Source: Syntrophobacter sp.
GTDB lineage: Bacteria > Desulfobacterota > Syntrophobacteria > Syntrophobacterales > Syntrophobacteraceae
DNA length: 64,000 nucleotides
Reading direction: 5' to 3'
Assembly: GCA_039679945.1 (NCBI GenBank)
Contig: JBDKTY010000067.1
Span: forward strand, 2,414-66,413
Numbering within the stretch: position 1 is the first letter of the stretch; the number at the start of each line of letters is the position of its first letter. A program made the translations under genes and the position numbers. Shown piece by piece: positions 1 to 27,521 of the stretch. The notes below the pieces were generated by a model, which was given only the letters and a program-made list of their open reading frames with translations, was not told where the DNA came from and ran no database searches.

Positions 1-648
1 GAGCAGTTCATCGTATCTGTCGGCACTGAGAAACACAAATTCCGGTCCATCCCTGTACTGCGAGGTGACCTGCCGGACAGAATGGATAAAACCACCCTCT
101 GCCCCATTGACTATGTACATTCTTTCGAGTGTGGGCTGCAGGTGAAGAATGAGATCGATGGTTTGCCGGATATCCAGATCGACCACTACCGGGATAATTT
201 GTCTCGAACTATGCTCGGAGGGGTATTTTTCGATGGAAGCAAGAACAGACACGACAGGGGTTCCCGGCGAAAGCCGGCTGCCCCGGTTGAGCACAAAATC
301 GGTGGCCAGACTGCCAAAGGTAATGATCGCATCAAACTTCCTGGGCCCGTACTTGGCGGTGTAATAGGTGGCCAGGGAATCGAGGTACCCGCTGCTTTTA
401 TTGCGATTCAGGTCCAGGTTTTCATGAGAAATGTCGAATGAATTCAGGTCATATGGCCCCAGAGCTTTGGCGATCCCCGAGAAAAACATGTCATTCAACG
501 GAAGCGAGCGGTCGAAAGGGTAAATTATAAGGAAGCTGGGCCTGCTGCTCTCCGCGGAAGCAGAACCGTACTGGCAGAACAGCAATGCGGCAAGGACAGC
601 GACGACCGACATGGAGCGCAGCCCCCATATCCATAAATCTCTATTCAT
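1..648 (-). CDS. Periplasmic solute-binding-like sensor domain protein, 3' end truncated by the window edge; paralog of the N-terminal domain of the kinase at 4629-7028
   Basis: The reverse strand reads MNRDLWIWGLRSMSVVAVLAALLFCQYGSASA... from ATG at 648 and stays open to position 1. It aligns with kinase residues ~50-250 (IIYPF, ENLDL, YLDSLA, FDAI, LSPG, TIDLI, LQPTL, SQYRDGPEF). It is absent from the ORF track because it has no stop in the window. Confidence 0.7.
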   Translation of the reverse strand, partial: MNRDLWIWGLRSMSVVAVLAALLFCQYGSASAESSRPSFLIIYPFDRSLPLNDMFFSGIAKALGPYDLNSFDISHENLDLNRNKSSGYLDSLATYYTAKYGPRKFDAIITFGSLATDFVLNRGSRLSPGTPVVSVLASIEKYPSEHSSRQIIPVVVDLDIRQTIDLILHLQPTLERMYIVNGAEGGFIHSVRQVTSQYRDGPEFVFLSADRYDELL

Positions 649-798
649 CCCTTTCTCCTGAAGTGCATCCGGCATCAATTTTTTGGTCCCTCTTCCCGGG
701 GTCGAAAAACCACCGTGATCTTTTTCACTCTTTTGAGTTTGGTTGCAATTGATCCGAACCTTAACCCACCAACAGAATAGTTCAATGATACTCGGTTC

Positions 799-817
799 GT
801 GTTGAAAGAATTCACAC
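799..817 (+). promoter_or_regulatory. Candidate enhancer (UAS) element GTGTTGAAAGAATTCACAC
   Basis: An identical 19-mer occurs at 7183-7201. It lies 186 nt upstream of the -24 element here and 185 nt there. Outer arms GTGT/ACAC are inverted. Confidence 0.45.
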
Positions 818-984
818 TCATCTTGAAGCGGATGAGAACCTGAAAACCCCTGCAATTAGACAAGCCTTTTGCATAGCCATCCAGCCTGTGCTCCCGCGGG
901 AAGGCATCACACGTTCTTCCGGGCAGGATCGAGCGCTTCATGTTTTCTGCCCGGCCACACTTCGAGCGTGCACGGAACATTCCA

Positions 985-1000
985 TGGCGTGGATCTTGCC
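985..1000 (+). promoter_or_regulatory. Sigma-54 (-24/-12) promoter candidate for 1142-2797
   Basis: TGGCGTGGATCTTGCC fits TGGC-N7-TTGC with correct GG-N10-GC spacing. It lies ~140 nt upstream of the ATG and matches 7368-7383 at 15 of 16 positions. Confidence 0.6.
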
Positions 1001-1141
1001 ATATATCCCGGTACAACGTTGGAACACGGCCTGTTCATGCATGTTTTTTGCCAAGGGTGACCGGTGGTGGTCTCTGAGCCGGCCAGGGACGAATCGGCGA
1101 CATTTCGGGACACAAGGACCAACCATCACGAAGGAGATCTA

Positions 1142-2797
1142 ATGAAGCGTTTTCTCGCGGTACGTACTTTTGCAGTGCTGGTACTGATAATGCTTGCCTT
1201 TGGCGCGGCGCCGGTTTTGGCGGAGGACACACCAGTCAATTCCAATGCGGGCACGAATGCAACTATAAACGGCCCAAAAACTAACCCGTACCTGGCATCC
1301 TCGCTCTACGGAATTGTACATTTTGACCCTTCCTCGAGCGACTCCACTCCCTACGGACCTCCCAAAGGCGTGTTCGTCGCCGATTCGAGGGACCAGAAAG
1401 TCGCTTACGCCGCTCCGGGTAACCTCATGATGGTTGCCTCCACGGACCCGCACTACATGTGGGAACCGGGAAGCGATCGCGTCCAGTACATACGCAAAAG
1501 CGGCGGCCAATGGGTACCGGTCGCAAGATTGGATATCCTTAACAAATTGAACTCATCCTTTGCAAAACTCACAAATCCAACAATCCGCAAATTCGGCAAG
1601 ACCTCGGTGGCTGGAATGACTCCGAGCGAAATGGATACATGGATGCAATCCATCCTTGGCACAAACTACAGTTCGCGGGGGGGAAATGGAATTTACACCC
1701 TGGTTGATAACAAAAACGTGCTCTACGCCGTCTACAATGGAAGCATAGTCGGTATTGGCCTTAAGGACCCGAATCGCCCCGAGGCAGGTCTTAAGATTAA
1801 ATACAGACTGGATGATCCCGTCACCAAAATTCAGGGTGTCAGCGGCGCTCGTGTCGGCGGTCTGAGCATGACCTATGACGGTCATCTTATAGTGACTTTC
1901 AGCAATGGAATATCAGTAGTCGATCGCAAGCTCACCCTCAGCACCAAATCGTACTACGCTTTCGGCACCGGCGAGCGGGTGACTAACTCGATTTGCGTCG
2001 ACGAGAATAACGGCATTTATGTAGCGAGCAATTCAATCATGCGCAAACTGGTTTGGACCGGCACAGCCCTTTCCGACCAGGCAAGCGACGGCGCTTGGTC
2101 GAGCACATATACTTCGGGTACTGAAACCGCCCCTATTGTCAGATTCGATAACGGGACCGGGTCCACCCCGACCCTTATGGGTTTTGGCAGTGATACAGAT
2201 AAGCTCGTGGTCTTAACCGATGGCGCCAAGGTAATGAATCTGGTGGCGTTCTGGCGCGATGCGATTCCCGCGGGCTTCACCGAACGTGTTGCAGGGCAGA
2301 TTCAAGTAACCTGCGGTTATAAGACCCTGCCCGAATGGATACAATCGGAGCAATCCGTGGTTGTAAGGGGCTATGGGGCCTTTGTAGTGAACAACATTCC
2401 GGAATCGGTCCCCGCTGAACTCAAGGCAGGCAACCAGATGACCAAGGCTGGCCTTCTGGGGCCGACATACACTCCGCCTTATGGCGTCGAACGCTTTGCG
2501 TGGGATACCACAACGCACTCATGGAGTTCCGTATGGGGGCGGTCGGATGTCTCATCTCCCACCATGATCCCGATCCATTGTGATACCGGCAATATGGCCG
2601 TCGTAGGCGGTTACATGCCCGATCTGGGTTGGGTAATACAGGGAATGGATTGGGATACGGGCGATACCGTCCACCTGACGTTCCTGGGCCCCTGGAACTT
2701 AGGAAATGGATACTATGCCATCGTGCAGTTCCTCGGGAACGGGGACCTGGTTCTCAACGGATTCGCCGGTTCATTACGGGTGCACTATGATCAGTAA
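1142..2797 (+). CDS. Secreted hypothetical protein (551 aa)
   Basis: AAGGAG RBS before ATG 1142. Signal peptide MKRFLAVRTFAVLVLIMLAFGAAPVLA. The composition is rich in Gly, Ser, Thr, Tyr and Trp, which I read as possibly beta-rich (not predicted). I recognise no family. Confidence 0.8.
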   Translation: MKRFLAVRTFAVLVLIMLAFGAAPVLAEDTPVNSNAGTNATINGPKTNPYLASSLYGIVHFDPSSSDSTPYGPPKGVFVADSRDQKVAYAAPGNLMMVASTDPHYMWEPGSDRVQYIRKSGGQWVPVARLDILNKLNSSFAKLTNPTIRKFGKTSVAGMTPSEMDTWMQSILGTNYSSRGGNGIYTLVDNKNVLYAVYNGSIVGIGLKDPNRPEAGLKIKYRLDDPVTKIQGVSGARVGGLSMTYDGHLIVTFSNGISVVDRKLTLSTKSYYAFGTGERVTNSICVDENNGIYVASNSIMRKLVWTGTALSDQASDGAWSSTYTSGTETAPIVRFDNGTGSTPTLMGFGSDTDKLVVLTDGAKVMNLVAFWRDAIPAGFTERVAGQIQVTCGYKTLPEWIQSEQSVVVRGYGAFVVNNIPESVPAELKAGNQMTKAGLLGPTYTPPYGVERFAWDTTTHSWSSVWGRSDVSSPTMIPIHCDTGNMAVVGGYMPDLGWVIQGMDWDTGDTVHLTFLGPWNLGNGYYAIVQFLGNGDLVLNGFAGSLRVHYDQ

Positions 2798-2945
2798 CCG
2801 GCAAGTCGCAGCCGACGAGTCGTCCAGTAGTTGGCGCGTTGTTTGGAGAAATTGAATAAAGACTTTGGTTGAGCACACCCGGTCCCTCCAGAATCCCCCC
2901 TCCGATGAGGGGCCGGGATTGTTCCTTTTCTTCAGCAGGTATCAG

Positions 2946-3104
2946 GTAGGTTGGGGTGAGCGGAGCGAACCCCAACACCCACGCATGCGGAAAATGTTGG
3001 GGTTCGCTCCACTCACCCCAACTTACGAGGTACGGGATTATCCCAACCTACGGGCTACGGGCTTGTTGCACATGTTGGGGTTCGCTCCGCTCACCCCAAC
3101 TTAC
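2946..3104. repeat. REP-like hairpin repeat, 3 copies (one inverted at 2946-2977, two direct at 2994-3026 and 3072-3104)
   Basis: The unit TGTTGGGGTTCGCTCC(A/G)CTCACCCCAACTTAC has an 8-bp stem GTTGGGGT/ACCCCAAC. It gives the spurious peptide MLGFAPLTPTY in the ORF track. Confidence 0.75.
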
Positions 3105-3237
3105 GGGATTACGGGGCTAAAGGGCTACAGGGCTCTCGGAGGGACGATCCCGGTCCCCTTGATCCCGGTCCCTTTTTCCAGCATGATGGGCTGACCAGCC
3201 TCGGATTTGGAACGCGACCAGACCGATGCCGGCCGGG

Positions 3238-4632
3238 TTACTTCCTGAGCCTCTTGTTCAACGCCGACCGGGTAATTCCCAGCATTGACGCCGCAAGGCT
3301 CTGATTGCCCCCTGACCTTATCATGGCCTCGGAAACCAGCGATTCCAGGGCTTCCTTGATAGTCGGCAGTCTCTCGGCGTATTGATAGAACCTGTCTCCC
3401 TCCACCGGTTTCCGGGGTTCGTCATGGCCCCGGTCCATGTGTTCCCGAAAAGAGGTCATCGACATCACCCGCGAAGAATTCTTGCCGACGGCGTCGTAGA
3501 TCATCGCCCTCAATTCCCGGATATTTCCAGGGAAATTGTACGCCATAAGGTGGAGTGGAAGCTCACGGGGATACAGCGGCTTCGGTTTTCCAAAATCGCG
3601 GGCGGCCTCTTCGATGTAGCGGTCCAGGAGCAGTGAAACATCAGTCAGCCTTTCCCGCAAAGGCGGTATATGGATATGGTGCGTCCTGAGACGATAGTAG
3701 AGGTCCTGCCGCATGAAGCCGTCAGTCACTAGCTGTTCCGGTTCCCTGTTCGTGGCCACCACGATCCGTGCTTGCACGGAGCGCGGCTCGTCCGAACCGA
3801 GAGGGAAATACTCCCTGTCCTGGATCACTCGCAGCAGCTTGATTTGAGAAGCCGCCGACAGATCGCCTATCTCGTCGAGAAAAATCGTTCCGCCCGCCGC
3901 CTTTTCTATGAGTCCGCTGCGAACCTCCGTTGCACCGGTAAACGCCCCCTTCCGGTGTCCGAAAAGAGTATCGGAAAACGAGTGATCGTCCACCCCCGCC
4001 GCATTCACGGCGATGAATTCGCCCCGCCTTCCGCTTGCAAGGTGAATGGCCCTCGCAAACAGTTCCTTCCCCACGCCCGTCTCGCCCGTGATAAGCACGG
4101 GTTCGCTTCCCTTCGCTATGGCCTCGCAGTACATGAAGAGGCCCATCATTTTCTTGTCCCGGGTGACTATGGCGGAGAATGCCTCGGGGTTCTTCAGACT
4201 GTCGGTAAGTATATGATGCAACAGCAGATCATTCTGTCGTTTCAACCGGCGGTAGTCGATCGCCCGTTTGATGCTCGATGAGAGCTGATCGGCATCCACA
4301 GGCTTGGTCAGATAGTCGAATGCTCCTTTACGAATACACCGGACCGCGGTCTGAATATCGTTGACCGCGGTCATCATGATCACCTGGATATCGGGATGCT
4401 TCAGGGCGATCTCCTCGAGCAGGCTCTCTCCCGATCTTTTCGGCATGATGATATCCAAGAGAACTGCCTCGATGTCATTGGTTTCCAGGAGGCCCATGAC
4501 TTTTGTCTCGTCCTGGCACGGAAGAAGGTTGTCGAAGCCGTTGAACTCCAAAATGATCCTGAAACTCTCCAGTGCCTGGGGTTCATCGTCCACAAGAAGT
4601 ATCGGATGTTCAGGTGTGAAATGGATGCTCAT
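3238..4632 (-). CDS. Sigma-54-dependent response regulator (NtrC family: REC + AAA+ + Fis-type HTH)
   Basis: Receiver ILLVDDEP...LLDIIMP, Walker A GETGVGKE, GAFTGA sigma-54 contact motif, and C-terminal HTH LAASMLGITRSALNKRLRK. The ATG at 4632 overlaps the kinase stop (ATGA). Confidence 0.93.
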   Translation of the reverse strand: MSIHFTPEHPILLVDDEPQALESFRIILEFNGFDNLLPCQDETKVMGLLETNDIEAVLLDIIMPKRSGESLLEEIALKHPDIQVIMMTAVNDIQTAVRCIRKGAFDYLTKPVDADQLSSSIKRAIDYRRLKRQNDLLLHHILTDSLKNPEAFSAIVTRDKKMMGLFMYCEAIAKGSEPVLITGETGVGKELFARAIHLASGRRGEFIAVNAAGVDDHSFSDTLFGHRKGAFTGATEVRSGLIEKAAGGTIFLDEIGDLSAASQIKLLRVIQDREYFPLGSDEPRSVQARIVVATNREPEQLVTDGFMRQDLYYRLRTHHIHIPPLRERLTDVSLLLDRYIEEAARDFGKPKPLYPRELPLHLMAYNFPGNIRELRAMIYDAVGKNSSRVMSMTSFREHMDRGHDEPRKPVEGDRFYQYAERLPTIKEALESLVSEAMIRSGGNQSLAASMLGITRSALNKRLRK

Positions 4633-7028
4633 GAATTGCTCCTGTTGTCGCTGCTGCACGCGGGAAGCTCCAGGACGGCGGTCGTACCCTCCCCCGCGCT
4701 GGAAGAAATGAGAATGCTGCCTCCATATGCTTCGACAATCTTCTTGGAGATGGCGAGACCCAGCCCGGTCCCCCCCGTCTCCCGCTTTGTCGTGAAAAAC
4801 GGGTCGAAGATCCTGTTCAGGTGCTCCGGCTGGATGCCCTGTCCGGAGTCTCTCACCTCCAGGAAAACCTTCCCCCTTTCAGCATCGTAATATGATCGTA
4901 TGCTCAAACACTGCTCCGTTGCGGTCAGCGCCTCGGCTCCATTGAGGATAAGATTGATCATAACCTGTCCCACGCGCTGACCGTTCGCCTCCACTGCCGG
5001 CAGATTCCCGCCATATTCCACGAACAGGTTGTCCGTCGACTTCTTCAGCTTGTTTGCTAACAGGTTCAGGGAAGACTGCAGGACGGCATTGATATCCACC
5101 TGTTCGGTCATCCCGGAAGGCTTTTCGGAAACGAACTCCTTCATGTCCGACACAATATTCTTGATTCGCTCCGATCCTTCTATGATGCCGTTCAAAAGGA
5201 TAGGGATATTTTCCCTGGCTCGCGAATAAGGGAGCTTTGCCACGGGGAAGTCCCCATTCTCCAGGGCATGTTTGTCGAGTATTTTGACTACGCTTTCCCA
5301 CGCCTTCTTCAACATCGGGGCATTCAGGAAGATGAAGTTATTGGGGTTGTTGATTTCGTGCGTTACACCGGCCGCCATGACTCCCAGGGAAATCATCTTG
5401 TCGGCGTGAACCAGTTGTTCCGCTCTTTCACGGGCTTCACGCTCGGCCAGCTTTCTTTGCGTTATGTCGAGAAGACACCCGATGAGGTGCGCCCTACCGT
5501 CGAGCACGACCCTATCGACCGTTTTCAATACGAAGACGTCCCTTCCCTGGCCTGAGACAAGCCTGTCTTCGAACGAGTCCGTCCCATTTGCGGATACATC
5601 TTCGGGCGTCTCGGATAGAAAGCCGTGGAAGCAATCCGGGCACAGACTGCCGGTCATATTCTCCGGAGGAATCCCCAGGAGTTCGGCGGCGGCCCGGTTT
5701 GCCTGCCGGATCGTCCCCGATTTGATATCGATCAGGGAAACCCCTATTGGGATTGAGGACAGCAGGGCCTGTAGGGTGGCTTCGCTTTCGCGAAGACTTC
5801 CGAGCGTCCTGTCCTGCAGGTCCCTGGCGTGGCCCAGTTCTTCCTGTTTCTCTTCCAGTTCCCTGCATGTGCCCCGGAGTTCCTGTTCCGCCGCCTTCCT
5901 GCTCCTCCACTGGATGAACAGCCAGAAGATAAGCGTACCCTGGGCAAAGAAAAAAAGAAGCGCGCCTCCCACGTGCCCCCTATAGTCGCGCCACAGGGAA
6001 GGGGCCCTGTTCACGACCTCGAAGCCGGCCAGCAGGTTCTTTTCGGAAAGACCCCATCTCGTCATCTGCCGCTCATCGACCTGCCGGATCGTAGACAGTC
6101 TGGTTTCGCCGATTGCGGCCGCACCATCATCCATGCCCAGGACCCCAGCCAGAAGATGGCCCACGGCAAGGCCACCTTCAAATACCGACGACATGGAGCC
6201 CCCAACTATCCCGGTGTACATATACTGGTCAGTCATTCCGTACACGGGACAGCCCGCCGTCTCGGAAAGTCTCCCGGCGACAGACTGTGAAGTGTATGAC
6301 CTGCCCGATCCATCCCTCATAAAACTTAGAAAGAGGATTGCGTCATGGCTATCCAGCTTTGCCGCGGCACTAAGCAGTTCCTCATAACTGCTTCCAACCG
6401 AAAATGCGAATTCCGGTCCATCCCGGTATTGTGAGACAACCTCCCGGATCTTCCAGACACTGCGCTCATAGGGGTGAGATCCGGAGACTATGTGGATTCT
6501 TTTGAGAGTGGGCTGCAGGCGCACAATGAGGTCAATGGTCTCCCGGACATCCACACTACTGAAAACCGGATAGACTTTCCTCACGGAATTCCAGGAAGTA
6601 TCTTTCCCTTTCAACGAAAGGGTCGCCAGGACGGGCGCACCGGGTGAGAGCGATTCGCACCGCCTGAGCAGAAATTCAAGCGACCAGTCGGTGACTGCCA
6701 CGATCGCATCGAAGTTTGTGGATGCATATTTGGTTGCCAAAGAACCGGCCAGGGAATCCAGGTATTCGTTACTGTCGATCCTGTCCAGGTCCAGGTTTTC
6801 CTGGCTGATCTCAAAGGTATTCAAATCAAAGGGTTCCAGGGCCTCGGTCAAACCCGATGAGAACCTGACACTAAACGGAAGCGCGCGGTTGAATGGGTAA
6901 ATCACGAGAATTTCGTGCCTGCCGGAACTGCCCGCATGTGCCGGATGCAACTGTAACATCGGCAATACCATTGCAAGGACCAGAATCACGAGGCAATGAG
7001 TAACCCGCAGCCGGGGACCTCTTTTCAT
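4629..7028 (-). CDS. Sensor histidine kinase (periplasmic solute-binding-like domain, TM, coiled coil, PAS, HisKA, HATPase)
   Basis: H-box AAGVTHEINNPNNF and ATPase motifs DSGQGI / GGTGLGLAI. I chose the start at M11 (GGAGAG RBS), supported by the conserved 5' block at the same offset as in the paralog at 1-648. Confidence 0.9.
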   Translation of the reverse strand: MKRGPRLRVTHCLVILVLAMVLPMLQLHPAHAGSSGRHEILVIYPFNRALPFSVRFSSGLTEALEPFDLNTFEISQENLDLDRIDSNEYLDSLAGSLATKYASTNFDAIVAVTDWSLEFLLRRCESLSPGAPVLATLSLKGKDTSWNSVRKVYPVFSSVDVRETIDLIVRLQPTLKRIHIVSGSHPYERSVWKIREVVSQYRDGPEFAFSVGSSYEELLSAAAKLDSHDAILFLSFMRDGSGRSYTSQSVAGRLSETAGCPVYGMTDQYMYTGIVGGSMSSVFEGGLAVGHLLAGVLGMDDGAAAIGETRLSTIRQVDERQMTRWGLSEKNLLAGFEVVNRAPSLWRDYRGHVGGALLFFFAQGTLIFWLFIQWRSRKAAEQELRGTCRELEEKQEELGHARDLQDRTLGSLRESEATLQALLSSIPIGVSLIDIKSGTIRQANRAAAELLGIPPENMTGSLCPDCFHGFLSETPEDVSANGTDSFEDRLVSGQGRDVFVLKTVDRVVLDGRAHLIGCLLDITQRKLAEREARERAEQLVHADKMISLGVMAAGVTHEINNPNNFIFLNAPMLKKAWESVVKILDKHALENGDFPVAKLPYSRARENIPILLNGIIEGSERIKNIVSDMKEFVSEKPSGMTEQVDINAVLQSSLNLLANKLKKSTDNLFVEYGGNLPAVEANGQRVGQVMINLILNGAEALTATEQCLSIRSYYDAERGKVFLEVRDSGQGIQPEHLNRIFDPFFTTKRETGGTGLGLAISKKIVEAYGGSILISSSAGEGTTAVLELPACSSDNRSNS

Positions 7029-7182
7029 TTCTCTCTCCAAAAGCACACTCGACATCAATTTCTTTGGCTCTCTCTTCCAAAGGCCTGATTGAGCGATGGT
7101 GATTTATTTCACCCTGTTGAATTTGGTGTCATGAGTCCGGATACAGATACACTAACAAAATAATCGAACGCCGACCCAACAC

Positions 7183-7201
7183 GTGTTGAAAGAATTCACA
7201 C
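7183..7201 (+). promoter_or_regulatory. Candidate enhancer (UAS) element, second copy
   Basis: Identical 19-mer GTGTTGAAAGAATTCACAC, followed by a conserved CTT..AGC.GATGAG.AC block as at 818-840. Confidence 0.45.
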
Positions 7202-7367
7202 CCGCCTTCCAGCCGATGAGGACACGAGATCGCATTCATCCGGCGGGTCCGTTCACTATCAGCCCGCCCCCGATTCGTCGCGAAACAGTATCCCGCGCCG
7301 TCCGGGATGGAGTCGGACGCTCCGAGGTTTCCGCGCGACAGTCTGTGACCTTGCACAGATTGTTCCG

Positions 7368-7383
7368 TGGCTTGGATCTTGCC
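7368..7383 (+). promoter_or_regulatory. Sigma-54 (-24/-12) promoter candidate for 7595-8907
   Basis: TGGCTTGGATCTTGCC has correct GG-N10-GC spacing and lies ~210 nt upstream of the ATG at 7595. Confidence 0.6.
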
Positions 7384-7594
7384 AAGAATCTCCACAAACA
7401 CGGACTCCATGGGTTGCCTGGCGCGGTTCCATGAAAGGAGACGGCCCACGCCGCCGCTTTTCATACGAGCCACTCCAGCCGGCATGGAAAGGAGGTGAGG
7501 ACTTCTATCCTGCTCCGTACAATCGATAAATCGCGACTGATGCTATTCCATGGCCCATCTTCAATCATCTCATTAGCGGAAGGCTGAAAATCAA

Positions 7595-8907
7595 ATGAAA
7601 AAAAGAACAGTATTCGCCACTTTGCTCGTCCTGACTCTTATAGCCCTGCAGGGACTCAAGGCTGAAGCCCGCAATCCGCTTGCAACGAACGACCAGTTAT
7701 ACGCGGAATACCTGGCTACATACATGATAGCAACTCCTGAAGTGGAGGCGGCAAAAGCAACGTTATCAACGAACTGGCAGGCCCTCCTCGGCACCGTGAG
7801 CGCCGAGCAACTGGCGTATCTCCAGGAAGCAGTCGATGAGTCGGCATTCGCATCGGCGCTTAGCGTGCAGGGCAGCGATCCCAACTATCCGAAGGCCATT
7901 TCGACTCTTGCGGCCCCACATTCCTGGCATGGCATGGATGTCCCCGGTTCCAGGTCGGTATTTGATAACCCTGACACGATTTACAGGAGTATCAAGATCG
8001 ATCCGACCGCGAGCTACGTAATTAGAGGCAAACGGGCACAGGTCCCGCCGGTGGATGAGAATTTTTCTCTGTGGGATGCTTCCAATAATACGATTTCGAA
8101 TATGCGGGGCAAGGACCTGGTCACAAAAGCGGACGGATCATTTACCATCACGGTGGACAGCAATCCCGCAAATGGCAGGAAGAACCACATCCAAACAACC
8201 TCGGCATCAAAAACCATATTTGTCCGGAATACCGTTAATGATTGGCAACTCAGAGGTTTACCAAATTGACTGTCGAACGGATCGACGATGGGACGACACT
8301 GCCCGACCCCAAGACGTTCGATGCCATGGTCAGTCAGATAGCTGCTTCCATTCCGAGCACCACCGCCATCAATATCTTCAATACCAGGGCGAATGCGCAG
8401 GCTGTCAATACAATCCCCGCTATAACCCGGGGAGGGAGCGCGGGGACCTTGTCAACCCAGGCGCAGGAATACAGTTCATGGAAGATTGCCGATGACGAGG
8501 CATTGATCGTAAAAGTCAACCTGGGCGGTGCAAAATACCTCATCTGCCCGGTTTATGATAAATGGCTGATCACAACGGACTACATCAACCATACGCAGAC
8601 CCTGAACAACGCCCAGGCAGTACCCAACCCCAATGGCACTTACACCTTCGTGATCTCCGTGCAGGACCCCGGTGTCTACAACTGGATCGATACGGTCGGA
8701 ATGCACGAGGGATATCTCAACCTCCGATGGCAGGCTCTGCCCGGCAAAGTCCCGGCGACCGGTGACGTATCGGCGACCATGAAACTTGTCAAACTGGTAT
8801 ATCTGAAAAGTATTCTCCCTCCCCATACCAAGTGGGTCACCAAGCAGGAACGCAAACAGCAACTCAGGGAACGCCGCGAGGCTTATGCGAAAAGATATGC
8901 GGAGTAA
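7595..8907 (+). pseudogene. Secreted DUF1214-like protein split by a single-base frameshift near 8240
   Basis: ORFs 7595-8269 and 8242-8907 abut in different frames. The second has no RBS or ATG. One extra G in GATTGGCAA would read ...FVRNTVNDWATQRFTKL... Motifs PPVDENFSLWD and NWIDT..GYLNLRWQ recall DUF1214. The signal peptide sits on the first part only. Confidence 0.6.
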
Positions 8908-8940
8908 CGGCTGGAACGTGTGAAGAATCGGGCAGCGGAC

Positions 8941-9068
8941 TGATACGGAGTTGCGTTCAAGATGAGTCTATCCCTAAATCGAAGATCCCGTTCAGAATTG
9001 ACCCGTTCTACCCTTCGATACCTCAGGGCGAACGGGGGTATATCCTCTTGAACGCCAATTAGTATGAG
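8941..9068 (+). repeat. 128-nt structured intergenic repeat, copy 1
   Basis: 125/128 identical to 45643-45770. Closing inverted repeat GCGTTCAAGA (8953-8962) / TCTTGAACGC (9046-9055). Inner hairpin CCCGTTC...GAACGGG. Confidence 0.8.
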
Positions 9069-9096
9069 GGCACACATCAGCCGCGATATGAAGATG

Positions 9097-9131
9097 GAAA
9101 AGATACCGCGAGGACTGATCCTTGCGGTATC
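9097..9131 (-). terminator. Rho-independent terminator candidate downstream of vapC
   Basis: 12-bp stem GATACCGCGAGG / CCTTGCGGTATC with a 6-nt loop, followed on the minus strand by TTTTCC. Confidence 0.5.
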
Positions 9132-9189
9132 CTTCATTGCAGTCATGAGTTGATTTGGTCACGGATAGCAGAAGGTTTTGCACCGAAAT

Positions 9190-9588
9190 TCAGCTTCCGA
9201 GCTTCAGATTGATTACCTTGATTCCCTTTTTCCTGTAGCTCTCGAAGTGGACATCCGTGGTGTAAATCACTCGGACTCTTTCCGCGAGAAAACCGGCGAG
9301 AATCAGAGAATCGACGGCAGAGATACCCAGACCGTGACTGAGCGCCGCCGCCCTTGAAAGAATATCATTGTCTCTGAGCCAGAGAACCGTGCAGACAGCG
9401 GGAATTGCTTCGAGCAGAGTGGTTGCGCCCTCGATTCCTCTTTTCAGGCTCAGCATTTCGAGTTCAGAGAGGGTCAGGCAAGATACGACAGCCTCTTCTC
9501 TGTCCTCGATAAGGGCTTTCCACACGGAGACCGACGTCGAATTTCCCCGAAGAAACTCAATGAAGAAACCCGTATCAAGGCCGATCAT
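9190..9588 (-). CDS. vapC: PIN-domain toxin VapC
   Basis: MIGLDTGFFIEFL... is a typical PIN N-terminus with an acidic Asp. The protein is 132 aa and overlaps the upstream antitoxin by 14 nt. Confidence 0.85.
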   Translation of the reverse strand: MIGLDTGFFIEFLRGNSTSVSVWKALIEDREEAVVSCLTLSELEMLSLKRGIEGATTLLEAIPAVCTVLWLRDNDILSRAAALSHGLGISAVDSLILAGFLAERVRVIYTTDVHFESYRKKGIKVINLKLGS

Positions 9589-9805
9589 CGCCCCTCCCCT
9601 CCTCGACCATCCTGTCCACATCCGGGGCGACGTGAACTTTACCGGCGAGTTCCAGTGCTTTATTCCCCAAAGCCCTCTTTTGCTGGTCGATGAGGTATTT
9701 CTCGATGGCCTCCGCCACGAGACTGGAGACCGAGACCTGACGGTTGGCCGCGACACGCTTCAAGTTTTCACTCAATTTGTCCGGAATGCTGACGGTCATG
9801 CGCAT
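9575..9805 (-). CDS. vapB: Ribbon-helix-helix (CopG-like) antitoxin VapB
   Basis: MRMTVSIPDKLSENLKRVAANRQVSVSSLVAEAIEKYL is an RHH fold signature. AAGGAGG RBS lies 5 nt before the ATG at 9805. Confidence 0.8.
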   Translation of the reverse strand: MRMTVSIPDKLSENLKRVAANRQVSVSSLVAEAIEKYLIDQQKRALGNKALELAGKVHVAPDVDRMVEEGRGDDRP

Positions 9806-9867
9806 GAACACCTCCTTGCCTGATCGAACAGGTTAATACCTGCTCTTCATGGATATCATATCATACC

Positions 9868-9879
9868 TTATGCGCATAA
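9868..9879. promoter_or_regulatory. Perfect 12-bp palindrome TTATGCGCATAA, candidate vapBC operator
   Basis: It lies 63 nt upstream of the vapB start. On the minus strand it overlaps a TTGTTA-16 nt-TATGAT promoter-like arrangement. Confidence 0.3.
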
Positions 9880-10009
9880 CAATGCGATACATTCCTTCCG
9901 CGCATCGAGAGCCTAAACGGTGCACCTTCAAGCGATAAATCGATGGCTATCGGGTATTCGGCCGCCGTCGTCGATACCCTTGCTTGCGCCGCTTGATGCG
10001 AATCCGCGG

Positions 10010-24574: not shown

Positions 24575-25309
24575 GTGTCCGAACCTCGGAAAAAGCTGGT
24601 GGTGGAAAATCTGGTCAAGGAGTACGGCGGCCGCCGTGTCGTGGACAATGTCTGCCTGGAACTGCATGAGGCGCAAATTGTTGGCCTCCTGGGACCGAAT
24701 GGGGCCGGAAAATCAACGACCTTTTACAGCATTGTGGGTATAATTCGGCCAGACAGCGGCGCGGTTTATCTTAATGACGAAAACATCATAGGCCAGCCGA
24801 TGTACCAGAGGGCACGGAAAGGAATAACCTACCTGTCCCAGGAGCCCTCGGTATTTAGGAAGCTTACGGTGGAACAGAATATACTGGCGATCCTGGAGAC
24901 AATGCCGATAGGCAGGCAGGAGCGGCAGGCAAGGTTAAAAGAGCTTTTGGGTGATCTGAGGCTGGAGCACCTGGCCGGCAACAAGGCTGACCGGCTCTCC
25001 GGAGGGGAGCGCAGGCGCGTGGAAATTACCCGCGCCCTGGTTACTCAGCCCAGCTTCATCCTGCTGGACGAACCGTTTGCCGGAATCGATCCGCTGGCGG
25101 TTCTCGAGATCCAGGGACTTATCCGGGCTCTCAAGTCGAAAGGTATCGGAGTGCTCATTTCCGATCACAATGTAAGGGAGACACTGAAAGTATGCGATTG
25201 GGCCTATATAATGCACGAGGGCCGCATCCTCGAAAAAGGCGACCCGATGGGAATTGCTCAAAGCGACCTTGCCAGGCGCACCTATCTTGGCGATCAGTTC
25301 AGTCTGTGA
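24575..25309 (+). CDS. lptB: LPS export ABC ATPase LptB
   Basis: GPNGAGKSTTF, LSGGERRRVEI, ILLDEPFAGIDP. Confidence 0.93.
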   Translation: MSEPRKKLVVENLVKEYGGRRVVDNVCLELHEAQIVGLLGPNGAGKSTTFYSIVGIIRPDSGAVYLNDENIIGQPMYQRARKGITYLSQEPSVFRKLTVEQNILAILETMPIGRQERQARLKELLGDLRLEHLAGNKADRLSGGERRRVEITRALVTQPSFILLDEPFAGIDPLAVLEIQGLIRALKSKGIGVLISDHNVRETLKVCDWAYIMHEGRILEKGDPMGIAQSDLARRTYLGDQFSL

Positions 25310-25320
25310 TGGATTAGGTA

Positions 25321-26775
25321 ATGGCGGGATTTGAACTTAAACAGCAACTGAAATTGAGCCAGCAGCTCATAATGACCCCGCAGCTCCAGCAGGCCATTAA
25401 GCTGCTGCAGCTATCGAGGTTGGAGCTTCTCGAGACCATTAACCAGGAACTCGAAACGAACCCCCTGTTGGAAGAGACTCAGGAAGAACTTCCCACCGAA
25501 CAGGATGCTGAGCTGGAAACCCTCACCAATACCGAAACTCCCTTCCAGGAAGTGCAGCTCTCGGAAACAAAGATAAGAGAAGACTTCGATTGGGAAGGCT
25601 ACCTCGACGAATACAACACGAGTACTCCCGTCCTTGTAGAGACCGATCCCAACCAGGAATGGCCCAGCTTCGACAGCCGATTGACCGAACCCACGACCCT
25701 GGAAGACCACCTTGTCTGGCAGCTTCGCCTCTCCGACTGCAACGAGCAGGAAAGGGAAATCGGCGGCACCATCATAGGCAACCTCAACAAAGATGGCTAC
25801 CTGGAAGCGACGATTGAAGAAATCGCCGAAATGACGGGAGCTGACACGAGCAAGGTTGAACAGGTCCTGGCAAGGGTGCAGACTTTCGACCCGACCGGTG
25901 TCGCCGCGAGGGATCTAAAGGAATGCCTTCTGATCCAGGCCAGGGCGCTGGAGCTTGAAGATCCGCTGGCTGTCCGCATCATAGAGGATCATCTCCATTA
26001 CCTCGAAACAAAGAACTACGCCGCGCTCGTCCGCACGCTGAAGCGAAGCCCCGAGGAAGTCAAGGCAGCGGTGGAAATCATCCTCGGACTGGACCCGAGA
26101 CCCGGAAGCGCCTTCAACAAGGAAACCGTTGAGTATATCAGCCCCGACATATACGTTTTCAAGGTCGACGAGGAATGGGTGATACTGCTCAATGAAGACG
26201 GAATGCCCAAGTTGAGGGTCAGCCCCTACTACAAGGATGCCCTTGGAGAGGGGGAGTCGCTTTCAAACGATACCAGGGACTATATCCAGACGAAGTTGCG
26301 CTCCGCCGCATGGCTGATAAAGAGCATCCACCAGAGACAGCGAACCCTCTACAAGGTTTCCCACAGCATAGTAAAGCTCCAGTCGGACTTTTTCGAAAAG
26401 GGCGTGGCGCACCTCAAGCCCATGGTGTTGCGCGACATAGCCGAAGACGTCGGGATGCATGAATCCACCATCAGCCGGGTTACCGCCAGCAAATACATGC
26501 ACACGCCGCACGGAATTTTCGAACTCAAATACTTCTTCAACAGCTCCATAAACAGCGTCATGGGTGAGGCCGTCGCCTCGGAAAGCGTAAAGGAGCGGAT
26601 TCGGCAGATAGTGCGGGAGGAAAATTCCTCAAAACCGTACAGTGACCAGGAGATAGTGGAGATTCTTGAGAAGGAAAATATCAGCATTGCCCGGCGCACG
26701 GTTGCCAAGTATAGGGAAATGCTGGGTATTTTGCCATCCAACAGACGCAAGAAAACTTGCTGGGGCCCCTCCTGA
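25321..26775 (+). CDS. rpoN: RNA polymerase sigma-54 factor
   Basis: Region I LKLSQQLIMTPQLQQAIKLLQLSRLEL and RpoN box ARRTVAKYRE. Confidence 0.96.
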   Translation: MAGFELKQQLKLSQQLIMTPQLQQAIKLLQLSRLELLETINQELETNPLLEETQEELPTEQDAELETLTNTETPFQEVQLSETKIREDFDWEGYLDEYNTSTPVLVETDPNQEWPSFDSRLTEPTTLEDHLVWQLRLSDCNEQEREIGGTIIGNLNKDGYLEATIEEIAEMTGADTSKVEQVLARVQTFDPTGVAARDLKECLLIQARALELEDPLAVRIIEDHLHYLETKNYAALVRTLKRSPEEVKAAVEIILGLDPRPGSAFNKETVEYISPDIYVFKVDEEWVILLNEDGMPKLRVSPYYKDALGEGESLSNDTRDYIQTKLRSAAWLIKSIHQRQRTLYKVSHSIVKLQSDFFEKGVAHLKPMVLRDIAEDVGMHESTISRVTASKYMHTPHGIFELKYFFNSSINSVMGEAVASESVKERIRQIVREENSSKPYSDQEIVEILEKENISIARRTVAKYREMLGILPSNRRKKTCWGPS

Positions 26776-26978
26776 TGGGTATCATGAGGTTGCTTGGGTC
26801 CGGCTTAGACGATTCCAGTCGGGCAGGGTTTCGGCCTGCCCGGTATACACATCGCGCCCCGCTGCCGTTCCATTTCACAGGGTTGCGGGAGCATGCGGCT
26901 AAAGTTGGAAAGTTCTCACCGCGCCGCGTGCAGCGTTGGATCGGCGATAGCTGAAAACAGCGTCTCAGGAGAAATGCC

Positions 26979-27521
26979 ATGCAGATTAACGTTTCGTTCC
27001 GCCACATCGAGGCATCCGACCCCTTGAAGCTCTATGCCGAGGACAAGATTTCCAGGGTCAAGCGATTTCTGAAGGAGCCAATAGAAGCCCACGTGGTGCT
27101 TAAGGTCGAGAAATTCCGGCATATAGCCGAAGTATCGATCGATGCTCCGGGTCTGCACCTGAACGGGGCCGAAGAAACCGACGACATGTATTCGAGCATC
27201 GACTTGCTTGTGGACAGTTTGGAGGGGCAGGTCAAGAAGGGCAAGAGCAAGGTCATGCGGCGCCGGCCGGCCGGGTTTGACAAGGAATCGGCGGTGCAGG
27301 CCGAGCCCGCCGGCGAGTCGATAGCGGCGGAAGACGAGGAACAGCGTATAATCAGGGCCGAGCAGGTCTACGCAAAGCCCATGGACCTGGATGAAGCTGT
27401 CATGCAGCTCAATCTCACAACCGGTGAATTCATCGTCTTCACCAACCGAAGAACGAACAGGATAAACGTCCTGTACCGCAGAAAAGACGGCAATCTCGGT
27501 CTTATCGAAACGGTTGGATAA
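26979..27521 (+). CDS. hpf: Ribosome hibernation promoting factor (long form)
   Basis: MQINVSFRHIEASDPLKLYAEDKI... plus a C-terminal dimerisation domain FIVFTNRRTNRINVLYRRKDGNLGLIE. Confidence 0.9.
   Translation: MQINVSFRHIEASDPLKLYAEDKISRVKRFLKEPIEAHVVLKVEKFRHIAEVSIDAPGLHLNGAEETDDMYSSIDLLVDSLEGQVKKGKSKVMRRRPAGFDKESAVQAEPAGESIAAEDEEQRIIRAEQVYAKPMDLDEAVMQLNLTTGEFIVFTNRRTNRINVLYRRKDGNLGLIETVG

Follow-up and report, generated by a model that had tools for sequence, protein, structure and literature searches.

The window analysed here, a 64-kb stretch of Syntrophobacter DNA, carries two copies, the first of them cut by the window edge, of one type of gene switch, composed of a membrane sensor kinase, a sigma-54 activator and a conserved predicted sigma-54 promoter, and each copy faces a different exported protein. 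The features of both copies are collected in Table 1. In copy two, the end of the kinase gene overlaps the regulator gene by 4 nt.

A sequence-only reading of this DNA had described the module as present twice, with a complete kinase and an NtrC-type activator in copy two and with rpoN in the same window. Its coordinates hold for the sensors, the spacers, cargo one and the regulator. The kinase of copy two carries PAS, HisKA and HATPase domains, the activator carries a receiver, an AAA+ domain with the GAFTGA motif and HTH_8, and rpoN is indeed present. Cargo two had been placed correctly but is not a single open frame in this assembly, where it is split into 7595-8269 and 8242-8907.

Table 1. 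Coordinates of the two module copies and of rpoN in the 64-kb window
Feature	Position	Strand	Remarks
Copy one sensor gene, 5' part	1-648	-	216 codons (216 aa); from translation; runs off window edge
Copy one divergent spacer	649-1141		493 bp
Sensor-proximal conserved island, copy one	673-696		Sensor strand reads GGAAGAGGGACC-AAAAAAT-TGATG; shared block, offset 24
Distal palindrome GTGATCTTTTTCAC, copy one	715-728		Putative binding site of the activator; 270 nt before TGGC
19-mer GTGTTGAAAGAATTCACAC, copy one	799-817		Putative upstream activating sequence; encloses proximal palindrome TTGAAAGAATTCAC (802-815), 183 nt before TGGC
Predicted sigma-54 type -24/-12 promoter TGGCGTGGATCTTGC, copy one	985-999	+	Exact match; predicted start near 1011, leader ~131 nt
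Cargo one ORF	1142-2797	+	551 aa
NtrC-type response regulator, sigma-54 enhancer-binding protein, copy two	3238-4632	-	464 aa; Pfam
Sensor histidine kinase, copy two	4629-7028	-	799 aa; Pfam and AF2 model
Copy two divergent spacer	7029-7594		566 bp
Sensor-proximal conserved island, copy two	7053-7078		Shared block, offset 24
Distal palindrome GTGATTTATTTCAC, copy two	7099-7112		
19-mer, copy two	7183-7201		Holds proximal palindrome at 7186-7199
Predicted sigma-54 type -24/-12 promoter TGGCTTGGATCTTGC, copy two	7368-7382	+	Exact match; predicted start near 7394, leader ~201 nt
Cargo two, exported protein, probably DUF1214-type	7595-8907	+	Frame interrupted
rpoN (sigma-54)	25321-26775	+	lptB-rpoN-hpf arrangement; Pfam Sigma54_AID, Sigma54_CBD, Sigma54_DBD

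Sensors, regulator and exported proteins

The incomplete product of copy one comprises a signal-anchor helix together with two thirds, counted from the N-terminus, of a sensor domain that resembles periplasmic binding proteins. The sensor domains of the two copies, previously judged by eye to be clear paralogs, are 48% identical over 206 aa (E=2e-55). The complete kinase of copy two has the domain order TM helix, periplasmic binding-protein-like domain, TM helix, PAS, HisKA and HATPase; HATPase_c is matched at 5e-24 and HisKA weakly, at 9.5e-4 and under the cut-off, with the H-box THEINNP present in the translation. The copy one sensor is 61-63% identical to the N-termini of kinases of 805-822 aa at the related loci L001, L005 and L006, and the best representative match, P0129, was ruled out as the copy-one kinase at 47% identity. 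In each of the complete homologues found (L001, L002, L005-L008), a kinase gene precedes that of an NtrC-type regulator and is divergent from the promoter, and from all of these we infer that the copy one gene continues into a kinase with an activator partner.

In the AF2 model of kinase residues 1-359 (pLDDT 91.3), the periplasmic sensor domain is confidently predicted to adopt a type I periplasmic binding fold, nearest to the PF04392 amino-acid binders. The top five Foldseek matches of the sensor model fall on 3LFT, 3LKV and 6HNJ/6HNI (CD0873), with a probability of 1.00 and TMt of 0.65-0.71. These PF04392 (ABC_sub_bind) solute-binding proteins serve transporters as free or lipid-anchored partners, with L-Trp, L-Tyr or L-Phe as ligands (PMC10443332), whereas the window domain sits between two membrane helices as part of a kinase and is 14-16% identical to them. 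The PF04392 Pfam model itself has no match in either window sensor, even at E<=1; among the sensor relatives, P0133 scores 60 bits, above the cut-off, and P0134 and P0151 give weak matches. A profile of full-length sensor homologues run against PDB sequences was dominated by kinase domains and was uninformative on the sensor domain. The window sensor domain is a member of a large superfamily of N-terminal sensor domains, to which P0133 also belongs, and its distant sequence relatives include carriers of PF04392.

The regulator of copy two matches Response_reg (2e-24), Sigma54_activat (1e-55), AAA_lid_14 (1e-13) and HTH_8 (1e-7), and has the receiver, sigma-54 AAA+ domain and C-terminal Fis-type HTH of an NtrC-family enhancer-binding protein. 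Both GAFTGA (residues 229-234) and the Walker A sequence GETGVGK are invariant in a 10-sequence family alignment. All of the named NCBIfam equivalogs scanned (AtoC, NtrC, ZraR, GlrR and others) score under their cut-offs, the best being AtoC with 324 bits vs 714.

The two exported proteins are unrelated to each other, as had been proposed (best E=1.0). Cargo one, which is GenBank MEN6438344.1, has an N-terminal signal peptide (VLA|ED), no family match in Pfam or NCBIfam, and a beta-propeller fold in its AF2 model (pLDDT 84.8). A fold search returned only generic propellers (PQQ dehydrogenases, BamB and YxaL, TM 0.42-0.49) and gave no functional assignment. The beta-propeller family of cargo one is large, highly conserved and shared with methanogens. 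Homologues of cargo one in other organisms occur without the sensor and without the promoter; this cargo, therefore, was recruited to the module.

The break in cargo two is a 1-nt deletion in this assembly, a missing G at 8244 that leaves GG instead of GGG. The intact protein has 437 aa, and an identical intact copy, P0278, is encoded on Logan contig L009, which differs from window positions 5999-8966 by 4 mismatches and by one indel, that of cargo two (99.9% identity). An intact orthologue is also found in L002. P0278 scores 24.5 bits against DUF1214 (PF06742), for which the gathering threshold is 25, and many homologues, 40-60% identical, carry DUF1214 as an annotation or pre-scored match. 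No functional study of DUF1214, likewise a large family, was found in the literature.

Recurrence in related genomes

About ten further spacers, on five related metagenomic or MAG contigs, have the same layout, promoter, pair of palindromes and adjoining kinase and NtrC-type operon. A search of relatives, which had been suggested as a check on the module, finds the unit of sensor, promoter and exported protein again in L001, L002, L004, L005, L007 and L008, with different cargo genes. At L006 the promoter is intact, and a DDE transposase gene on the opposite strand occupies the cargo position. The cargo types across modules are beta-propeller, DUF1214-type, DUF1254/DUF1214, PA-domain-like, and sulfatase with a radical-SAM maturase. 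The genome contig scan found only two other MAGs.

This is a lineage-specific expansion of two-component, sigma-54 modules that are predicted to drive exported proteins. Given that the promoter is kept while the units recur with varied cargo, the proposal of a paralogous family of signal-responsive, sigma-54-dependent units for extracytoplasmic proteins stands. The block of kinase, regulator and spacer, to just past the -12 element, has quite probably been duplicated repeatedly in the Syntrophobacter-related lineage and placed before unrelated exported proteins.

The divergent spacers

Local alignment of the two spacers scores 68, against 20.7 +/- 2.7 (max 33) for dinucleotide shuffles (z=17) and at most 29 for random window segments. 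Aligning 649-1141 to 7029-7594 against shuffled controls, a check proposed earlier, thus bears out the similarity, and the conserved islands do lie at equivalent offsets from the sensor start. They comprise the shared exact block CATCAATTT at 673 and 7053 (offsets 24 and 24), the identical 20-mer CGTGTTGAAAGAATTCACAC at 798 and 7182 (149 and 153), and the shared exact block TGGATCTTGCCA at 990 and 7373 (341 and 344). The two sensor genes retain 61% identity at their fourfold-degenerate sites; therefore, part of the general spacer similarity is shared ancestry, and the islands stand out because they are invariant across many more diverged copies.

The -24/-12 promoter had been called in both spacers upstream of the cargo, and the identical element TGGCnTGGATCTTGC, with TGGC-N7-TTGC spacing, has its only exact matches in the window at these two places. 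In 7 aligned spacers its sequence stays constant between diverging flanks, and it is found in all 12 related promoter regions, with 1-2 changes in the sulfatase-type spacers. The generic TGGC-N7-TTGC pattern is not rare, with 3 found in the window vs 2.4 expected, and therefore the promoter call rests on position and conservation. A scan of metagenome contigs with the pattern TTCCNTGGCNTGGATCTTGC gave 63 matches, of which 0 adjoined a sensor and 1 had a distant regulator match, so these are chance matches. On the minus strand neither spacer contains TGGC-N7-TTGC, such that no element of this type points toward the sensor genes.

It is very improbable that the spacers resemble each other only through residual homology from a segmental duplication, with a fortuitous -24/-12 match and with cargo genes transcribed from other promoters. 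The identity at fourfold-degenerate sites leads one to expect some neutral similarity, and the promoter pattern by itself is statistically unremarkable, as stated above. Yet the islands show no variation in 7-12 spacers of several genomes, with sensors 45-60% identical, while neighbouring columns vary, and the homology ends shortly after the -12 element, at the start of the unrelated cargo leaders. A consensus sigma-70 scan found no promoter in either spacer, and both a gene for an enhancer-binding protein and rpoN are present. A riboswitch or attenuator in the leaders was also considered and dropped, since their predicted folding is no more stable than that of shuffled sequences (z=+1.45 and -1.27); an Rfam scan of 1-10000 gave nothing credible.

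The 19-mer previously noted is common to both spacers, lies inside the identical 20-mer and occurs in the 64 kb only at these two places, with 0.02 matches expected. It is one of two palindromic sites, both of which are likely to bind the activator. In non-sulfatase spacers, TTGA-N6-TCAA-type palindromes lie at -183 +/- 2 and -270 +/- 3 from TGGC; the sites of L004 lie at -181 and -285/-306, and the proximal site of L008 at ~-181. At the palindromes, the columns without variation in the 7 aligned spacers coincide exactly with the TG...CA cores. Both sites lie far from the promoter, at ~-200 and ~-290 from the predicted start, and their 87 bp separation is wider than that of classical tandem NtrC or DctD sites. 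At L002a both sites read TTGC-N6-GCAA instead of TTGA-N6-TCAA, and this paired switch, seen in one module, points to one module-specific binder for both sites.

The TTGA-N6-TCAA motif, which is GTGA-N6-TCAC in the window, fits the general half-site pattern of FNR/CRP-type boxes. The palindromes could accordingly be boxes for a shared global regulator of the CRP/FNR family that co-regulates all modules, for example with redox or carbon status; such a factor would act mainly on the promoter of the sensor operon and modulate the sigma-54 promoter, while the enhancer-binding protein binds elsewhere or acts from solution. The near likeness of half-sites in paralogous modules of one genome agrees with such a factor, as does the position of the distal site, ~50 bp upstream of the -10-like element of the sensor gene. 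This reading is nonetheless quite unlikely. A joint change of both sites in L002a only is unexpected for a global factor, diverged spacers keep the distances to the sigma-54 promoter constant to within 3 bp, every module brings an HTH_8 regulator of its own, and between the palindromes and the promoter there is no further conserved candidate site.

The island nearest to the sensor gene may possibly be a -10-like element and leader of the sensor operon. The other spacers have a purine-rich tract followed by a GAAAAT/AAAAAT/TAAGAT-like hexamer, ~31-33 nt downstream of the distal palindrome (~43 nt in L002b). Reading the CATCAATTT island as an IHF site was rejected: seen from the sigma-54 promoter, the island lies beyond both palindromes, and only one of its copies fits the consensus.

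Proposed mechanism and related systems

The preferred reading, to which we give a probability of roughly 0.8, is that the two copies are both self-contained regulatory modules of the two-component, sigma-54 kind. The membrane histidine kinase would sense a periplasmic small molecule via its modelled binding-protein-like domain and, judging from domain content, would phosphorylate the co-transcribed NtrC-type response regulator. The activated regulator would then bind one or both of the TTGA-N6-TCAA-type palindromes in the divergent spacer, as their conservation and covariation suggest, and would open the sigma-54 holoenzyme complex at TGGCnTGGATCTTGC by DNA looping and ATP hydrolysis, such that the divergent gene for the exported protein is transcribed. 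The distal palindrome might also serve autoregulation, given its position relative to the -10-like element. That the module is placed before unrelated exported proteins suggests substrate- or product-induced expression of extracytoplasmic enzymes.

The two window spacers have the identical 20-mer and near-identical distal sites, and the L001/L005 paralogues share half-sites; therefore, insulation at the DNA level between paralogous regulators is not evident. Between modules, regulator identity is 71-94% and the HTH segments are very much alike. Several kinase/activator pairs might on these grounds converge on one enhancer sequence, as a cross-wired OR-gate regulon in which any of several signals switches on the whole set of exported proteins rather than one-sensor, one-gene units. 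Against this, most sensor domains cluster with others of the same cargo type, as in a sulfatase clade and a W2+L002b clade, and this favours dedicated pairs. The diverged site pair in L002a points to insulation, and a pair that lies strictly next to one promoter normally indicates dedicated control. Cross-wiring of this kind is judged unlikely. A broader proposal, judged equally unlikely, is that the block of kinase, activator, enhancer and promoter behaves as a portable plug-in cassette, copied at least half a dozen times in one Syntrophobacter-related lineage and fused downstream of -12 to unrelated exoenzyme genes; its copies may form a cross-wired multi-sensor network because the paralogue enhancers remain almost identical.

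The self-contained module has well-known counterparts. In E. coli, the ZraS/ZraR kinase and NtrC-type regulator operon is divergent from the sigma-54-dependent zraP, which encodes a periplasmic protein; ZraR binds inverted repeats in the shared spacer, ZraS responds to Zn/Pb, and zraSR is itself sigma-54 dependent. The modules described here share the divergent arrangement of such an operon and an exported-protein gene, with inverted repeats in the spacer. Unlike zraSR, they have no -24/-12 element toward the sensor genes and have a different periplasmic sensor domain, their NCBIfam scores are far under the cut-offs (238 vs 760 for ZraR and 137 vs 479 for ZraS), and their cargo is varied and enzyme-like rather than a chaperone such as ZraP. 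In Rhizobium, the divergent target of DctB/DctD is the transporter gene dctA, and the spacer holds two upstream activating sites. The dctBD-dctA system is likewise a two-component sigma-54 system with a divergent target and two upstream sites, which are putative here, but its target is a transporter, the DctB sensor is not of the binding-protein type, and the Dct sites are closer to the promoter and to each other.

In the hybrid two-component regulators of Bacteroides polysaccharide utilisation loci, a single polypeptide unites sensor and kinase with a receiver and an AraC-type output. Their functional logic is the same, in that a periplasmic sensor gene adjoins genes for exported hydrolases, including sulfatases, that are induced by substrate fragments. 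In contrast to the present modules, they have no sigma-54 involvement, and there is no sequence relationship. Genes for enhancer-binding proteins in Desulfovibrionales are commonly divergent from sigma-54 promoters with palindromic sites upstream (PMC4641369). The same 2015 study describes a deltaproteobacterial genome rich in enhancer-binding proteins, with regulators that adjoin their sigma-54 targets and with conserved palindromes at least 100 bp upstream (PMC4641369). Those regulons differ in organism group and in sensor architecture, and none is described with this PBP-like sensor or with this set of cargo.

The design is therefore well known, as with zraSR-zraP and dctBD-dctA, and no new regulatory principle is involved. 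What the locus does offer is a clean natural case, in a syntrophic deltaproteobacterium, of a regulatory module that was duplicated while its targets were exchanged, along with a precise, testable model of promoter and enhancer. It also ties a poorly studied class of PBP-like sensors to exported proteins, among them sulfatases and members of two uncharacterised families, and therefore screening for sensor ligands could hint at the substrates of the enzymes. If the sensors do bind the substrate or product of the neighbouring enzyme, they would provide an experimental handle on the beta-propeller family and on DUF1214.

Two units with one gene layout

Two units that share one gene layout lie in the leftmost 9 kb of the window (Table). 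The sequence-only reading took them for a duplicated sensor-and-promoter cassette driving two unrelated secreted proteins, and this observation is confirmed by the matching layout, the identity between the sensors, the alignment of the spacers, shared elements unique to those spacers, and the presence of rpoN in the same window, as had been noted. The N-termini of the two sensor proteins are 48% identical (E=2e-55) and therefore paralogous, and the two cargo proteins are unrelated to each other, both as proposed. The rpoN gene lies in the canonical order lptB-rpoN-hpf (window 24575-27521).

The boundaries proposed for unit two stand, but cargo two is not a single frame in this assembly. One G is missing at 8244, which splits the gene into frames at 7595-8269 and 8242-8907. 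A Logan contig (L009, run SRR15035646) that is 99.9% identical to window 5999-8966, with just 4 mismatches, reads GGG where the window has GG, and encodes exactly the repaired protein. The orthologue in the related metagenomic locus L002 is also an intact ORF, of 437 aa. Because the near-identical L009 copy is intact, the frameshift either arose in assembly or marks a pseudogene at the strain level.

Table. Features of the two units in the window, and cargo genes of the related loci
Feature	Position	Strand	Remarks
Unit-one sensor ORF	1-648	-	216 codons, cut by window edge
Unit-one spacer	649-1141		493 bp
Cargo one	1142-2797	+	551 aa
Unit-two regulator	3238-4632	-	464 aa, same operon as kinase
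Unit-two kinase	4629-7028	-	799 aa, 4-nt overlap with regulator gene
Unit-two spacer	7029-7594		566 bp
Cargo two	7595-8907	+	split frame in this assembly
rpoN	25321-26775		between lptB and hpf
Sensor-proximal shared block CATCAATTT	starts 673 and 7053
Shared 20-mer CGTGTTGAAAGAATTCACAC	starts 798 and 7182
Shared block TGGATCTTGCCA	starts 990 and 7373
L001a, L005A cargo			DUF1254+DUF1214
L001b, L005B cargo			452-aa PA-domain-like protein
L002a, L002b cargo			cargo-two paralogues
L004, L007 (twice), L008 cargo			sulfatase, then anaerobic sulfatase-maturating radical-SAM enzyme
L006 cargo position	7182-8837 of the locus	opposite	DDE transposase, downstream of intact promoter and palindromes

Three copies of a REP-like hairpin element of 37-39 nt, one of them inverted, occupy window 2939-3109, in the gap where cargo one and the regulator gene converge, with the core TGTTGGGGTTCGCTCC(A/G)CTCACCCCAAC. 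The ORF at 2865-3194 is probably a mere translation of this element. In GenBank, the proteins from cargo one through the kinase have successive accession numbers (MEN6438344-346). A PIN-domain (VapC-like) ORF at 9190-9756 on the minus strand adjoins cargo two and may have a small partner gene upstream; in L002, the window's relative, an RHH_5 gene lies between the two modules.

Sensor, kinase and regulator in the window and in related loci

Unit two was said to include a complete kinase and an NtrC-type activator, and the domain content agrees. With its REC, AAA+ sigma-54 interaction, lid and HTH_8 domains, the regulator is a complete enhancer-binding protein of the NtrC type; it scores below every NCBIfam equivalog cut-off (best AtoC, 324 bits versus 714). 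The kinase carries PAS, a weak HisKA match and HATPase_c, and its residues 1-359 matched no Pfam model. An AlphaFold model of the sensor domain built from 51 homologues (pLDDT 91.3) predicts a membrane helix, a two-lobed domain of alternating alpha/beta structure and a second membrane helix. The top PDB matches to the model are the PF04392-type binding proteins 3LFT (L-Trp-bound), 3LKV and CD0873, with TMt of 0.65-0.71. A full HMMER scan gave sensor-domain relatives in 8,254 representative clusters, just four of them at 46% identity or above. Most are multi-domain signalling proteins; P0151, for example, is a one-component membrane protein of 1029 aa in which this same kind of PBP-like sensor domain is fused to GAF, PAS, sigma-54 AAA+ and HTH_8 domains. 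Another relative, P0133, scores above the PF04392 threshold. Therefore, the label of a periplasmic solute-binding-like sensor holds by modelled fold and by transitive homology, but not by a direct family match. Aromatic amino acids are the ligands of solved PF04392 proteins (PMC10443332), which offers only a lead to the sensor's ligand.

Close members of the sensor family are rare: 8 matches turned up in 5.8 billion proteins. Metagenomes supplied the contexts L001, L002 and L004, and among 185,579 representative genomes scanned, two "uncultured delta proteobacterium" MAGs gave four further loci, L005-L008. At every locus the sensor forms the N-terminus of a kinase that is followed by an NtrC-type regulator of 464-468 aa. 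The intact kinases of the related loci span 642-832 aa, those of L001a and L004 being fragmented in their assemblies. Upstream of the kinase, in divergent orientation, is an exported-protein gene, except in L006, where a transposase takes its place. The expectation that the unit of sensor, promoter and exported protein recurs in relatives is thus borne out, with differing cargo genes. L002 is syntenic with the window, has a hexapeptide-transferase neighbour in common with it, and carries two modules in tandem, its contig stopping directly past the second regulator. Regulators are 71-94% identical across all modules, with GAFTGA and Walker A motifs invariant among those aligned, and the sensor domains of distinct modules are 44-86% identical and group largely by cargo type.

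A conserved spacer with a predicted sigma-54 promoter

The islands reported at equivalent offsets in the two window spacers survive formal alignment and include exact shared blocks whose distances from the sensor start match. The local alignment scores 68, against 20.7 ± 2.7 for dinucleotide shuffles (z=17), a pairwise similarity that overstates constraint, since fourfold-degenerate sites in the two window sensor genes are still 61% identical. The 19-mer of the sequence-only reading, which includes the proximal palindrome, and the element TGGCnTGGATCTTGC occur within the 64 kb only in the two spacers. When seven spacers are aligned, 46 columns are invariant: about 20 make up TTCCnTGGCTTGGATCTTGC plus TGCA some 11 nt upstream, and most of the others belong to the cores of two palindromes. 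By itself, TGGC-N7-TTGC is not a rare pattern (3 occurrences versus 2.4 expected); the case for a candidate promoter and its putative sites is carried by family-wide invariance, fixed geometry, the adjacent enhancer-binding protein and rpoN. Taking GC at -12, transcription is predicted to start near 1011 and 7394. Past the -12 element, the homology of the two window spacers fades within some 20 nt, where unrelated leaders begin; these leaders match nothing in Rfam and do not fold unusually.

Counted from the T of TGGC, the palindrome start positions in all non-sulfatase spacers are -183 ± 2 and -270 ± 3, which places their centres in the window at about -200 and -290 relative to the predicted starts. 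Of the four sulfatase-type spacers, L004 and L008 have related sites at similar positions. The motif is TTGA-N6-TCA(A/C/T), and the distal sites in the window read GTGA-N6-TCAC. This resembles FNR/CRP boxes, and the half-sites are common to paralogous modules, so a global factor acting at the palindromes or cross-talk among the paralogous regulators is possible. In L002a both palindromes have switched jointly to TTGC-N6-GCAA/GCAT, which points to one module-specific dimeric binder for the pair. The L002a regulator is unlike the others at a few positions of its HTH, e.g. LNRRLKK versus LNKRLRK, which is only a hint.

Across the family, the sensor-proximal island (673-696; 7053-7078) recurs as a purine-rich tract and then a GAAAAT-like hexamer, some 25-30 nt ahead of the ribosome-binding site; it may supply the sensor operon with its -10 region and leader. 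Neither a consensus sigma-70 promoter nor a minus-strand -24/-12 element for this operon was found in the spacers scanned. The sulfatase-type modules (L004 at about 7000-7100, L007, L008) have a conserved leader, about 330 nt long in L004, L007b and L008 and shorter in L007a, which holds a perfect palindrome, ATATGCAGATAATCTGCATAT, with the sulfatase start about 100 nt downstream; this could act as a second operator or form a hairpin in the RNA.

Domains, fold, conservation and recurrence support the reading of the modules as paralogous sigma-54-dependent units for exported proteins. In the proposed mechanism, a ligand at the periplasmic domain would control kinase activity, and the phosphorylated regulator would bind the palindromes and oligomerise. 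By looping, it would activate sigma-54 holoenzyme at the invariant promoter, resulting in transcription of the divergent gene, and the distal site may also serve in autoregulation.

Cargo exchange and known divergent units

Cargo one (GenBank MEN6438344.1, from a Syntrophobacter sp. MAG) has a signal peptide and belongs to a large, strongly conserved family of more than 855 members for which Pfam has no model; its bacterial and methanogen (Methanosarcina, Methanospirillum) proteins are 50-55% identical. Cargo one is modelled as a beta-propeller with generic structural matches only, and some members of the family carry fused PKD, PASTA or chagasin-like domains. Homologues from other organisms (L073, L074) have neither the module sensor nor its promoter; therefore, cargo one was recruited to the module and not the reverse. 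In L074 (8001-12345), a DUF3313 gene stands between two copies of the family; directly upstream is a metallo-beta-lactamase-fold gene, and a LuxR-type regulator lies some 5.5 kb off. Cargo two appears to be DUF1214-type, its score of 24.5 bits lying just under the cut-off of 25, with many annotated homologues. Its paralogues in L002 (6054-7355; 11930-13243) are each just 64-85% identical to the window protein and share identical C-terminal 47 residues, which suggests gene conversion or a common recombination end-point.

The zraSR-zraP and dctBD-dctA systems are classical divergent two-component sigma-54 units, and the module resembles them in architecture. It is also like units in Desulfovibrio, where many enhancer-binding protein genes diverge from sigma-54 promoters that have palindromes upstream (PMC4641369). 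Unlike these known units, the module has a PBP-like sensor, widely spaced palindromes and a sensor operon that lacks a sigma-54 promoter. Despite the three differences, the architecture matches, and the modules are therefore a lineage-specific expansion with target swapping rather than a new mechanism. Paralogues with near-identical enhancers may be cross-wired, and the pairing of sensor and enzyme may provide a route to the substrates of uncharacterised cargo families.
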